Virus record (IMG/VR): IMGVR_UViG_2974732567_000001
Coordinates: 1-64,000 of that record
Strand: one strand, 5' to 3'
Source: a virus
Taxonomy: Duplodnaviria > Caudoviricetes
DNA: 64,000 bases
Under the pieces are notes generated by a model that ran no database searches, was not told the origin of the DNA, and was given only the letters and a program-made list of their open reading frames with translations. The first letter of the stretch is position 1. Every line of letters starts with the position of its first letter. The translations under genes were made by a program, and so were the position numbers. Positions 13,991-61,786 of the stretch are shown here, in pieces.

Positions 13991-14143
13991 TTAGTAATAT
14001 ATAACAGCGGGCAGAGGCTCTGGCGGAACCTCTTGCTTGTTATTCGTTGCCATTCTGAGTTTACACTCAAGATCACATTCACTACAGTTGATAATATTAT
14101 CTCGTGTAGGACATTCGTTAGAAATCGAATTTGAAGTTTTCAT
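13991..14143 (-). CDS. Small Cys-rich protein
   Basis: MKTSNSISNECPTRDNIINCSECDLECKLR... Confidence 0.5.
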   Translation of the reverse strand: MKTSNSISNECPTRDNIINCSECDLECKLRMATNNKQEVPPEPLPAVIYY

Positions 14144-14525
14144 GATCGTCTCGATCAAATAAATGTTTAACAATCATAGGTTTACATATTCTTGCAAATT
14201 CTTTTGCTGTATCTCTGTCTTTGAGTTCCAAGGAAGTACCGGCAGTAGCATAAGCATAGCCGGGCTCAAGGTGAGAACCAACACAGAGCAAGCCCGAAGG
14301 TTTTCGATTATCTGTATAGCTCCAGCCCCATATGAAATATCTTACTTCTTCTGGATCTGTTATTCTAGGTTTCCAGCCTTTATTCAAAGCTTTTGCAATG
14401 GTTTCTAACTTGATGAAGTTCCTAGTTTCATCTGTTAATTTGTAGCTTTTATAATTAGCTACAGGACGAAGACCTAGCAATTTGCATGCATCTTCATACG
14501 GTTTTTCTTTACTTAATTCAATCAT
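14118..14525 (-). CDS. Small early protein carrying a remote DGR variable repeat (VR2)
   Basis: 135 aa; internal SGLLCVGSHLEPGYAYATAGT matches the VR1 peptide SGLLCVGSHLGPGHADAHVGT. Confidence 0.85.
   Translation of the reverse strand: MIELSKEKPYEDACKLLGLRPVANYKSYKLTDETRNFIKLETIAKALNKGWKPRITDPEEVRYFIWGWSYTDNRKPSGLLCVGSHLEPGYAYATAGTSLELKDRDTAKEFARICKPMIVKHLFDRDDHENFKFDF
14235..14298 (-). repeat. DGR variable repeat VR2
   Basis: 64-nt ungapped match to TR 60569-60632 with 17 mismatches, 15 of them at TR adenines. Confidence 0.85.
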
Positions 14526-14620
14526 GCCTTTTTACGATTATAAGGTTCCATTTTCTTATGCTTAGGACGTTTCTTGTATTCCGTCTTAGTTTTTACTTCT
14601 TTCTCCTTATTCTTTCCCAT
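14522..14620 (-). CDS. Small basic peptide (32 aa)
   Basis: MGKNKEKEVKTKTEYKKRPKHKKMEPYNRKKA fills the gap and has an ATGA overlap. Confidence 0.55.
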   Translation of the reverse strand: MGKNKEKEVKTKTEYKKRPKHKKMEPYNRKKA

Positions 14621-59262: not shown

Positions 59263-60504
59263 ATGAAATTAGGAGATAAAAATATTGTAGCTGCATATCT
59301 TGGCGATGTTAATGTATTTACTAACTATTATGGGGTTAGCTTTCCTATAGAACCGTAGAATACATTAATGACTAGAACAGGATACATGCCTTGGCATAAA
59401 GAACTTCCTATACATTCTAAGATGAAGTCTTGCACGATTACTTCTGATGGAACAGTTAAATATCTTAATGCTACAGATAGAACCAAGTATGAAGATGGTA
59501 CTGATAGAGACATGACATTAAATACTATGGTAGAAATACCAGAGTTTTGGTATAAATGTATGAGAGATGATACTACTGTATATTTGAACTTATATCCAGC
59601 AGATCCTCATATTCCAGAAGCTGAACATGTAGAGAAGTTCTATATTTCTGCATATGAAGCGTCTAATGTAGACAATGTGTTAAAATCTATTAATAATGGA
59701 TCTATCACTCCGGTAGTAAGCATTAATAGAACTACTATGCAATCTAGAGCTAGGGCTAATAACTCTAGTACTACTAATTGGAACATGTATACTTATAGAG
59801 CTCATAGAATACTTACTGTGCTTTACTTAGTTGAATATGCATGTACTAATAGTCAGAAAGCTTTCAATGCTGAATTAACTGCAGAAGGATACCATCAAGG
59901 AGGTTTAGGAGATGGAGTTACTGCAGGTAATATTAAAGTAAATGGAGTTGATACATGGAGTTTTATACCTTGTGGAAGTACAGACGAACATGGAAACTCT
60001 ACTGGTATAACTTCCGTTACTGTTAATAGTACTGACGCAGAAGGTGTTGCAACTCAGAAGTCTTATAATGTTCCTACTTATAGAGGTATTGAGAATCCAT
60101 TTGGTCATGTATGGAAAAATTGTATAGACATACTTGTACATTTTAATGCACAAACTAATAAAAATGACGTTTATATAAATACCGACTTAAGTACATTTGG
60201 ATCTACTGATGTATTTGATTATGACTATCAATGTAGTACTACTATTACTGAAGGTTATAAGAAGAAATTGGTATACAATGCAGCATTTGACATATTTCCT
60301 CCAATAGATGAAGCATTTGGTGGTAACACTACAACTTATTGGTGTGACTACAATTGGACTAACAATAGTACAACTGATAGGCTAACAGTAATAGGCGGTT
60401 TTGCGGGTTATGGTGCTAATTCGGGCTTGCTCTGTGTTGGTTCTCACCTTGGGCCCGGCCATGCTGATGCTCATGTCGGTACTCGGTTAATCTATATACC
60501 GTAA
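59263..60504 (+). CDS. DGR target protein, CLec/Mtd-like putative receptor-binding protein (413 aa, 1 TAG)
   Basis: MVEIPEFW, YISAYEAS, YRGIENPFGHVW and a C-terminal variable region ending GTRL. Confidence 0.85.
60392..60484 (+). repeat. DGR variable repeat VR1
   Basis: 93-nt ungapped match to TR with 24 mismatches, 23 at TR adenines. Confidence 0.95.
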
Positions 60505-60540
60505 TTTAATTAAAAATATAGATAGGTTGTTCCTCATCAT

Positions 60541-60633
60541 TAAGCAGTAATGCGAGTAATAGTGCTAATTCAGGCTTACTCAATGTTAATTCTAACAATG
60601 AGCTCAGCAATGCTAATGCTAATGTCAGTACAC
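60541..60633 (+). repeat. DGR template repeat (TR)
   Basis: AAT/AAC-rich copy of VR1 containing 32 adenines, between the target gene and the RT. Confidence 0.95.
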
Positions 60634-60760
60634 TGAATCCGTAATTAAAAAAAGTAAAGAAATTAAGAGACTGTAGAGGGAGACCTTGCCCCTTGGCAAA
60701 AAATAACATACTAATTAACTGTGCTAGTAACATATGTGAAAACTCGGTAAGGGATTACAG

Positions 60761-61786
60761 ATGAAAAGATATAACAATTTATTTGACAAAATAGTAACTT
60801 TAGATAATCTATATTTAGCAGATAAAAGAGCTAGAAGGCAAAAACAACACAGACCCGAAATAATTGAATTCGATAAGAATAGGGAGAAGTTACTCTTAGA
60901 TCTTCAGAAGAAATTAATAAATGGTGAATACAGAACTTCTGAATATTACATATTTAAGATATATGAACCGAAAGAAAGAGAAATATTTAAACTTCCGTAT
61001 TATCCAGATAGAATAGTTCATCACGCAATAATGAATATAATGGAACCTATATGGGTATCTTCTTTCGTTAAAGGCACTTATAGTTGTATAAAAAATCGTG
61101 GAATACACAAAGCTTTAAAAGATGTCAAACATGCATTAAAAGATGAAGCTAACACATAGTATTGCCTTAAATTAAATGTCAGAAAATTTTATCCTTCAAT
61201 AGATCATGCAATATTAAAATAGTTGATTAGAAAGAAAATAAAAGACAAACAACTGTTAGTAATATTAGATGAAATTATAGATTCAGCAGAGGGAGTACCT
61301 ATTGGAAATTACTTATCATAGTTCTTTGCTAATCTGTATTTAACATATCTAGATCATTGGGTAAAAGAAGAAAAACACATAAAATATTACTTCAGATACG
61401 CAGATGATATTGTAATACTTCATGGAGATAAAGACTATCTAAGACAGTTATTCAAGGATATGAAGTAGTATCTAGAAGAAAGACTTAATATCAGTTTTAA
61501 AGACAATTGGCAAATATTTAAAGTAGATGACAGAGGTATAGACTTTGTAGGATACAAGATATTTCATACTCATACTCTTTTAAGAAAACGTATTAAGAAA
61601 AACTTCTGTAAAAAGTTAAGCAAACTGAATAAGAAATAGAATCTAGATAGGCACGTTTACCAACAAAAGATATGTAGTTACATAGGTTGGATTAAATATT
61701 GTAACGGTCGCAATTTATTTAATAAAATGACTAAACATAAAGAGCTATTGCAATACATATCTAAGAATAAAAAGAGGAAAACCTAA
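60761..61786 (+). CDS. DGR reverse transcriptase (341 aa, 5 recoded TAG); motif-A Asp replaced by Asn
   Basis: EPKERE, YPDRIVHHA, YCLKLNVRKFYPSIDH, GVPIGNYLS(Q)FFAN, FRYADD, GIDFVGY, SYIGW. Confidence 0.93.

Follow-up and report, generated by a model that had tools for sequence, protein, structure and literature searches.

DGRs of phages are generally seen as host-range devices that retune receptor-binding proteins. At the locus described here, a repeat resembling a DGR template lies in the middle of a small gene far from the cassette and on the other strand. This raises two questions: what kind of protein carries the repeat, and whether the repeat is still being rewritten from the template. 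The window, that is, the whole stretch of 64,000 nucleotides that was analysed, corresponds to positions 1-64000 of a genome of 100,198 bp from a crAss-like phage of the genus Buchavirus (Suoliviridae, Loutivirinae), to which cr109_1, cr113_1, cr52_1 and cr56_1 are related. The features used below are as follows.

Positions 14118 to 14525, minus strand: gene of P0001, a small soluble protein of 135 aa and member of phrog_11581, with a conserved scaffold and a hypervariable VR-encoded loop.
Positions 14235 to 14301, minus strand: VR2, the second variable repeat, corresponding to TR offsets 25-92 and encoding residues ~76-97 of the small protein.
Positions 14235 to 14243, minus strand: IMH-like 3' block of VR2, GCCGGTACT in the window.
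Positions 14522 to 14620, minus strand: highly basic ORF of 32 aa, with a stop codon that overlaps the VR2 gene start (ATGA).
Positions 59263 to 60504, plus strand: tail protein, the adjacent DGR target, 413 aa with one in-frame TAG read as Q.
Positions 60392 to 60485, plus strand: VR1, at the C-terminus of the tail target, with 16 of 17 mismatches at TR adenines (shared 64 nt).
Positions 60541 to 60634, plus strand: TR, the template repeat, 94 nt.
Positions 60761 to 61786, plus strand: DGR reverse transcriptase (RT), of 341 aa when its five in-frame TAG codons are translated as Q.

The cassette itself is readily recognised. The tail target matches the tail protein family phrog_5302, and its orthologues are annotated as 'tail protein; similar to sulfatase, major tropism determinant'. 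The RT matches RVT_1 at 6.9e-16, and its translation contains the motifs IGNYLSQ and YADD. Like the BPP-1 DGR (Mtd, TR, Avd, Brt), the system has adenine-specific transfer from TR to VR by a DGR RT, AAY-rich TR codons, and a tail adhesin with a C-terminal VR (here VR1) beside TR and RT. It differs from BPP-1 in several respects. BPP-1 has Avd, whereas no avd ORF was present when the interval between the tail target, the TR and the RT was inspected for ORFs; the RT is translated only with TAG suppression; and the second target is small, distant, located in the early arm, and carries its VR internally. DGRs described for crAss-like phages (crAssphage LMMB, PMC7290462; epsilon, PMC11054128; zeta, PMC12386605) come from the same virus order and also have an RT/TR/tail-fibre cassette that ends the structural module, but the portions of these reports that were consulted describe adjacent tail-fibre targets only and mention no remote small target in Suoliviridae.

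We next turn to the repeat in the small gene. Positions 14298-14235 of the minus strand align without gaps to TR positions 60569-60632. Of the 17 mismatches over 64 nt, 15 are at TR adenines, of which there are 21 (hypergeometric probability of 15 or more among 17, 3.6e-8), which reproduces exactly the alignment claimed in an earlier note on this DNA. The two remaining mismatches are T>C at TR 60604, which is also seen in VR1, and T>C at TR 60625. That note had further placed the repeat in mid-gene, about 46 kb from the TR, in a 135-aa protein unrelated to the tail target outside the VR. All of this is correct: the repeat is internal to its ORF with 38 codons downstream, the distance from VR2 to TR is 46.3 kb with the strands opposite, and in BLASTP and profile comparisons the likeness to the tail target is confined to 23-27 residues, all of them VR-encoded, with the VR-encoded segment of P0001 resembling the end of the tail target's VR domain. 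VR2 and VR1 are translated in one and the same frame, so that both genes use the TR's AAY codons as such. When the whole genome of 100,198 bp was scanned in an adenine-tolerant manner, only three copies were found, namely VR1, TR and VR2, with no third DGR target, and the same scan of five shuffled genomes gave zero copies.

One further property of the window concerns the two variable repeats themselves. The first ~32 nt of VR1 and VR2 are the same, nine variable adenine sites included, and the two repeats share 11 of 16 variable adenine sites, compared with 3-8 in other genomes and a mean of 5.2 in cross-genome pairs. Such a long identical block is unusual and is not predicted by independent homing.

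P0001 matches phrog_11581, where no function is assigned, at 3.8e-13, and members of the family occur in at least 525 IMG/VR loci. Among 80 loci with distant members, 46 have an adenine-specific TR and an RT directly downstream, the RT being 51-63% identical to that of the window, and 34 have no TR or RT within 8 kb; the count of 46 depends on these 8-kb flanks. In all 36 cassettes analysed, one TR serves two or three VRs in small ORFs of 101-269 aa (median 150), about 23 codons following the VR, and none of the 36 has a large tail-like target within 8 kb. The canonical order is two or three tandem small genes, then the TR, then an RT of the same lineage as that of the window. For example, the contig L130 of a Mu-like phage encodes three consecutive paralogues of 159, 125 and 135 aa, each with an internal VR. 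They are followed by a spacer that contains the TR (for the last gene, 70 nt with 0 non-A and 14 A mismatches), and the next gene is an RT with 55% identity to that of the window. In L133, three VRs are provided by a tandem two-domain member together with its single-domain neighbour; one TR serves all three, and a truncated RT follows. Apparent TR matches in L131 were discarded as an A-rich low-complexity stretch. The idea that L130 is Hankyphage, or that a Hankyphage target belongs to the family, was unsupported: a tblastn search with P0134 in an annotated phage collection, in which the presence of Hankyphage is unconfirmed, returned only crAss-like records and one weak match to a Bacteroides phage.

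The small-protein family is widespread and is the adjacent, primary DGR target in many other phages, a point that the earlier note had missed, and these cassettes show P0001 to be a non-accidental DGR target and a member of a family dedicated to that purpose. The canonical small-protein cassettes are probably already contained in published DGR catalogues without being named. A global DGR survey was unable to detect remote targets (PMC8144416), and within the limited literature searched we found no description of the P0001 family or of a remote target in Suoliviridae.

The position of the gene bears on what the protein may do. In the late genes of this phage, TAG is a sense codon read as Q. In-frame TAG is abundant in the plus-strand arm from 24 to 92 kb and essentially absent from the ORFs of the minus-strand arm, which runs from ~92 kb across the origin to ~19 kb and includes a polymerase-sized ORF. 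The VR2 gene belongs to this TAG-free replication arm, on the strand opposite to all structural genes, and its neighbours are a run of small genes on the same strand. The basic 32-aa ORF is annotated at the equivalent position in cr109_1, cr113_1 and cr52_1 (gp04, gp08 and gp90, respectively).

Comparable surroundings are seen in other phages. L151, the one cassette with annotated neighbours, lies within a replication/recombination module: RecT, an exonuclease and SSB are encoded on one side of it, and HNH, a primosomal-like protein and a methyltransferase on the opposite side. The member in L129 adjoins an SMC-like ATPase, SSB and VRR-NUC. In L135 it directly follows a cI/Cro-type switch, near a crAss001_48-related protein, PcfJ/PcfK and a Dam-type methyltransferase, and in L132 it lies in an integrase-proximal early region. 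In L133 the adjoining protein has an Acb2/Tad1-type hairpin domain (27.4 bits against the Pfam cut-off of 27). None of these five members is located in a tail module. This genomic context supports an early, non-structural role of the family but is no proof of it. The earlier note had described the setting of the VR2 gene as early and non-structural, a description that gains indirect support from the TAG-free arm, from the early and replication modules around the family elsewhere, and from the lack of a signal peptide or TM segment.

The protein sequence combines strong conservation with local hypervariability. At 90% identity, the close homologues of P0001 split into 968 clusters, almost all of which are 84-92% identical to P0001; this by itself points to a conserved scaffold that bears a hypervariable patch. 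The scaffold is strongly conserved across the 968 clusters, while about eight positions are fully variable in the alignment, following the pattern SGLLxVxSxxGLGxAxAxVGTS. An exhaustive search gave 152 representatives at 50% clustering (E <= 1e-3), including ~140 distant relatives at 26-50% identity. The scaffold motifs of the family are EDAC..LG, ALNEGW.PDW, KYYPWF and VGSRL.FK, after which comes a C-terminal helix; P0001 belongs to the divergent members and has WKPRITD, RYFIWGW and AGTSLELK. No TM-like segment or hydrophobic N-terminus was found in P0001. In the family, 137 of 141 members are without a TM-like segment, and a signal-like N-terminus occurs in 0 of 141.

A first AF2 model from a shallow alignment reached a pLDDT of 52 and was superseded by a run with 144 sequences (pLDDT 84.3, pTM 0.79). 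The predicted fold is a three-helix scaffold (helices 9-17, 32-48 and 104-123) with a long variable loop, and low confidence is limited to the VR loop. Neither P0001 nor 40 family members matched Pfam. A Foldseek search of the model against PDB gave a best E-value of 1.8, a wide VIA-align search gave a best Z of 4.2 with no CLec row, and the PDB sequence-profile search returned nothing. The ESM Atlas search found hypothetical viral clusters only, and the BFVD structure search uncharacterised phage proteins only. The minimal CLec fold that had been suggested for the protein finds no support in these searches, as the confident model (pLDDT 84) matches no solved fold, a result that speaks neither for nor against a C-type lectin fold. 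Also, no known anti-defence family was matched by Pfam or by solved structures; hints of anti-defence come from family neighbours only, namely the Acb2/Tad1-type hairpin domain and the crAss001_48-related protein.

We give about an even chance to P0001 being a cytoplasmic binder, a kind of role that the earlier note had suggested; its programmable loop would face a variable molecule of the host or a competitor, in anti-defence, host takeover or exclusion.

Alternatively, the small protein could be an adhesin that acts outside the cell or on the virion, for example as a tail-tip accessory or a decoration protein, with a gene that happens to lie outside the structural module; the DGR would then tune two parts of the adsorption apparatus. 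Nearly all phage DGR targets characterised so far bind receptors or belong to the virion (PMC8144416, PMC6199706). Whole cassettes given over to two or three copies of the family, with no tail-like target within 8 kb, suggest a role as important as adsorption, and a DGR that serves small proteins alone could equally mean extracellular or virion binding. A TAG-free gene is compatible with late expression, and a phage virion protein needs no signal peptide. However, the gene is found in the replication arm opposite all structural genes, and five unrelated phages place the family among early, recombination or replication genes instead of tail genes. In addition, the searches of PDB, VIA-align and BFVD revealed no structural similarity of P0001 to virion proteins, and the protein is small, without a recognisable virion-attachment domain. 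We consider an adhesin the main rival reading, less likely than not but with a real share of the probability.

Phage DGRs with two targets are relevant here. They have been described for tentaclins (PMC10743442), for the Faecalibacterium phages Lelie and CP11, which have large and small DUF6273 targets, and likewise for the Roseburia phage Shimadzu (PMC11792537). As in the window, these DGRs (PMC10743442, PMC11792537) have two different proteins as targets, one of them small or without assigned function, and the VR is not always C-terminal. Their targets adjoin the cassette and are read as structural or receptor-binding, whereas P0001 is encoded in the replication arm. Unlike the targets of Lelie and CP11, P0001 has no match to DUF6273 or to any other Pfam family.

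If the protein does act inside the cell, it may still be directed at something other than host defence, namely at rival phages or mobile elements, with the protein serving as a sensor or exclusion factor. Many members are carried by temperate phages in accessory, moron-type positions near immunity and recombination regions, and a role in diversifying cytoplasmic sensors of conflict systems has been proposed for cellular DGRs (PMC10907252). The DGR targets of Thiohalocapsa PB-PSB1 are such a case: they are predicted to be intracellular and to belong to conflict systems, as is proposed here, but they are bacterial multidomain STAND/NACHT and CLec defence proteins, whereas P0001 is a single-domain phage protein without a CLec match (PMC10907252). 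On the other hand, the family is also present in two crAss-like genera with no lysogeny genes in the regions examined, an effector domain is neither fused nor consistently adjacent, and the one neighbour with an Acb2/Tad1-type domain, barely above the cut-off, points to counter-defence. We regard such a sensor or exclusion role as improbable. A 2026 cohort preprint reports that phage DGR targets are mostly unannotated and that none matches a known anti-defence protein (10.64898/2026.03.05.709809).

Whether VR2 is still rewritten was evaluated by comparison of assembled genomes. The small gene was paired to RT/TR loci for 38 IMG/VR loci, mostly on the same contig; in three of the 38 pairings, the RT and TR were on a second contig of the same sample. 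There were 25 usable pairs; L012/L048 and L021/L069 were left out, since VR1 had been taken for the TR in both. When VR2 is compared with its own TR in the 25 paired genomes, 377 of 523 adenine sites differ and 41 of 1077 other sites (Fisher P ~1e-190), and the corresponding values for VR1 are 365 of 503 and 7 of 1033. The mean number of non-A mismatches of VR2 is 1.6 against the TR of its own genome and 6.8 against foreign TRs. At lineage-specific non-A positions, the VR2 copies of cr52_1 and cr56_1 have 1 and 0 mismatches to their own TR, respectively, compared with 5-10 non-A differences to the TRs of other genomes. This tracking of the own TR is seen in three lineages at species level and extends to another genus. 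Blohavirus cr53_1 has a divergent homologue of 122 aa, distant from the cassette, and the VR in it matches the TR of cr53_1 over 60 nt, with 13 mismatches at A and 0 at non-A positions.

The variation is also sharply localised and recent. In the four RefSeq relatives, the flanks of the orthologue are ~95% identical and the scrambling is confined exactly to the VR2 segment. Over 42 orthologues, TR-A columns have an entropy of 1.42 bits, compared with 0.39 for non-A VR columns and 0.36 for the remainder of the gene. Between contigs with 100% identity over the 564 nt of flank, 9-11 of 19 A columns of VR2 differ. L009, of all contigs the nearest to the window (flanks 99.7% identical), departs from it at 13 adenine columns and at 2 other columns. 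Seven genomes have one TR core in common, but their seven VR2 copies are all distinct, and so are their seven VR1 copies.

At the level of assembled genomes, these patterns demonstrate adenine-specific, TR-directed and recent rewriting of VR2 in trans. A comparison of VR2 among relatives had been proposed as a check; variation at TR adenines is found in more than 40 of them, contigs with identical flanks differ, and VR2 is thus not invariant and varies in an adenine-specific manner. The claim that one TR diversifies both a tail protein and a small protein of the early arm is strongly supported by the way in which VR2 tracks its own TR. Taking this together with the membership of its protein in a dedicated family, we consider it highly probable that VR2 is a genuine and live second target of the phage's single DGR.

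Some genomes depart from the common arrangement. In contig L045/L117, VR2 is unlike the resident TR (9 non-A mismatches), the cassette having probably been replaced. The TR and RT are lost in cr109_1, which keeps both target genes. In cr113_1 the tail target, TR and RT are all lost, and the small gene has a frame-breaking deletion of 94 nt (window-equivalent 14336-14243), the 3' edge of which abuts the conserved VR 3' block. The reading of this deletion as a footprint of the TR was rejected, as it covers TR-equivalent 60531-60624 and the match in length is a coincidence.

Non-adjacent targets of phage-associated DGRs within ~50 kb have been documented, and the action of TR and RT in trans is established (Wu et al. 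2018, PMC5758913). Those cases share with the window the use of one TR for an adjacent target and a second one within ~50 kb of the same phage genome. They were recognised by the A-to-N pattern only, whereas the second target described here is conserved in two genera, has been active recently, and belongs to a family with dedicated cassettes of its own.

The diversity of VR2 could also have been acquired second-hand, by occasional homologous gene conversion from VR1, so that it would represent past states of VR1. The ~32-nt identity and the 11 of 16 common sites in the window would fit this, and conversion from VR1 would bring the non-A states of the TR into VR2 too. However, VR1 and VR2 share no more variable sites in the 24 other genomes than cross-genome pairs do, and with only 64-67 nt of homology at ~75% identity, ending within 9 nt of the 3' end, the two loci are poorly suited to recombine. 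Several genomes have a VR2 5' end that is unlike both the TR and VR1, and the canonical cassettes target the family directly from their own TR without any tail-type VR. Conversion as the source of VR2 is therefore very improbable. The remaining idea, that VR2 is a decaying relic of a one-off VR copy and no longer a target in this lineage, could draw on the two non-A mismatches and the altered 3' block of the window VR2 and on the DGR-less relatives that keep the gene (cr109_1) or carry it broken (cr113_1), but it is hardly credible given the differences to L009, the tracking of the own TR across lineages and a second genus, and the conserved scaffold of the 968 clusters.

With VR2 taken as a live target, its boundaries suggest how it may be recognised. 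The 3' block reads GTCGGTACT in nearly all other copies of VR1 and VR2 and GTCAGTACA in the TRs; it is fixed in the VRs, and two A positions distinguish VRs from TRs. In the VR2 of the window the block is altered, with GCC in place of GTC. The similarity between VR1 and VR2 stops immediately past these 9 nt, and the flanks are then unrelated. We infer that the block is a short IMH/IMH* pair that would act as the recognition signal. A GC-rich IMH of the BPP-1 type was not found 3' of VR2 or VR1, where nothing is common beyond the 9 nt, and no hairpin or cruciform was detected there, the DNA folding no better than shuffles (z = 0.03 to -0.78); in this the VR2 site differs from BPP-1 with its GC-rich IMH and hairpin. 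There is a weak GCAAA/TTTGC stem ~27 nt downstream of the VR. The non-A mismatches of VR2 are concentrated at its 5' end, as expected if homing is anchored at the 3' side with a variable 5' crossover.

We propose the following mechanism. The TR (60541-60634) would be transcribed and copied by the RT (60761-61786) with adenine-specific errors, and the mutated cDNA would replace VR1 in the adjacent tail gene. The same source of cDNA would act in trans and replace the 64-67 nt of VR2, on the opposite strand at a distance of 46 kb. For VR2, the probable anchor of homing is the 3' block that both targets have in common (GTCGGTACT in the VRs, GTCAGTACA in the TR), with a 5' crossover that depends on homology. 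Such a process would account for the restriction of copying to TR offsets 25-92 and for the occasional lag of the VR2 5' end relative to the TR. TAG suppression is required for the RT but not for the product of the VR2 gene, so diversification would take place late in infection, and new variants would act in the next infection. The small protein rewritten in this way belongs to a family of soluble proteins of 100-270 aa with a three-helix scaffold, a VR-encoded loop and a C-terminal helix.

The same template thus rewrites a tail adhesin and a small soluble protein encoded among replication and early genes. DGR surveys that are limited to the neighbourhood of the RT miss such conserved remote targets in the crAss-like phages that are abundant in the human gut. 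The family is large and easily recognised, and its compact scaffold of ~130 aa tolerates roughly eight fully randomised positions; the temperate phages with canonical cassettes are tractable systems for tests of function. More broadly, a whole class of phage DGRs may serve small cytoplasmic early proteins instead of virion adhesins, providing programmable intracellular binders against host defences, host factors or rival elements, with the TR of the Loutivirinae crAss-like phages wired to both arms of the genome. We put this forward tentatively, as somewhat less probable than not. If the proteins act in the cell, phages would gain a built-in evolution of binders against variable intracellular targets such as defence systems, a phage counterpart of the diversified sensors proposed for bacteria. 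If this is true, a single template in Loutivirinae would diversify both cell entry, through the tail protein, and the conflict after entry, through the small protein.

In the window genome, the first ~32 nt of the variable repeat of the small-protein gene (VR2) and of the tail target gene (VR1) are identical, with 14267-14298 on the minus strand equal to 60420-60451 on the plus strand. Nine of the variable adenine sites fall in this block, as do two synonymous changes. When the whole repeat is considered, 11 of 16 variable sites are common to VR1 and VR2 in the window genome; in 24 other genomes the counts range from 3 to 8, and the cross-genome mean is 5.2. This sharing suggests that both repeats were copied from one cDNA, that one VR was converted by the other, or that the assembly produced it.

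In several genomes (L011, L020, L023, L032 and L035), the first 8 nt of VR2, at its 5' end, are of the type of another template repeat (TR) lineage (TTCGGGCTT versus TGCTAGGTT, or vice versa), and VR2 beyond these 8 nt follows the resident TR. These foreign-type ends fit partial 5' crossovers or recent TR exchange. In L045 and L117, which represent IMG/VR contig 3300045988_074447, VR2 departs from the resident TR at 9 non-A positions. It was found that this VR2 is similar to the TR type of sister genomes. Its flanks match those of L041 and L044 at 100% identity. A recombination seems to have swapped the cassette of the diversity-generating retroelement, leaving VR2 as an orphan.

Two Buchavirus relatives have lost parts of the system. 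In cr113_1, the tail target, the TR and the reverse transcriptase (RT) are all gone, and its small gene carries a deletion:

L002:1889-2146 (equivalent to window 14336-14243): 94-nt deletion in the small gene of cr113_1, which breaks the frame.

The entire VR2 segment is removed and the edge of the deletion adjoins the GTCGGTACT block; this might be the product of an aberrant homing event. In cr109_1 (L007:3637-3873), both target genes (tail and small) are retained, but the TR and RT are deleted, with the holin gene coming directly after, so the VRs of this genome are expected to be frozen.

Upstream of the VR2 gene lies another small frame:

14522-14620, minus strand: very basic ORF of 32 aa; its stop and the start codon of the VR2 gene overlap (ATGA).

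This ORF is annotated at the corresponding position in cr109_1, cr113_1 and cr52_1, and its translation may be coupled to that of the VR2 gene.

Further observations concern small-protein cassettes in other phages. In L133 (11379-11699 and 12853-13899), the cassette has a shortened RT of 106 aa, with an IS1595-type transposase about 1 kb downstream. Its three VRs still differ from the TR at up to 14-17 adenines per 45-nt window. Two canonical cassettes, L149 and L167, each have an extra VR-bearing family member (L149:2615-2692 and L167:8234-8310) located 4-6 kb from the TR, so non-adjacent copies also occur outside the crAss-like phages.
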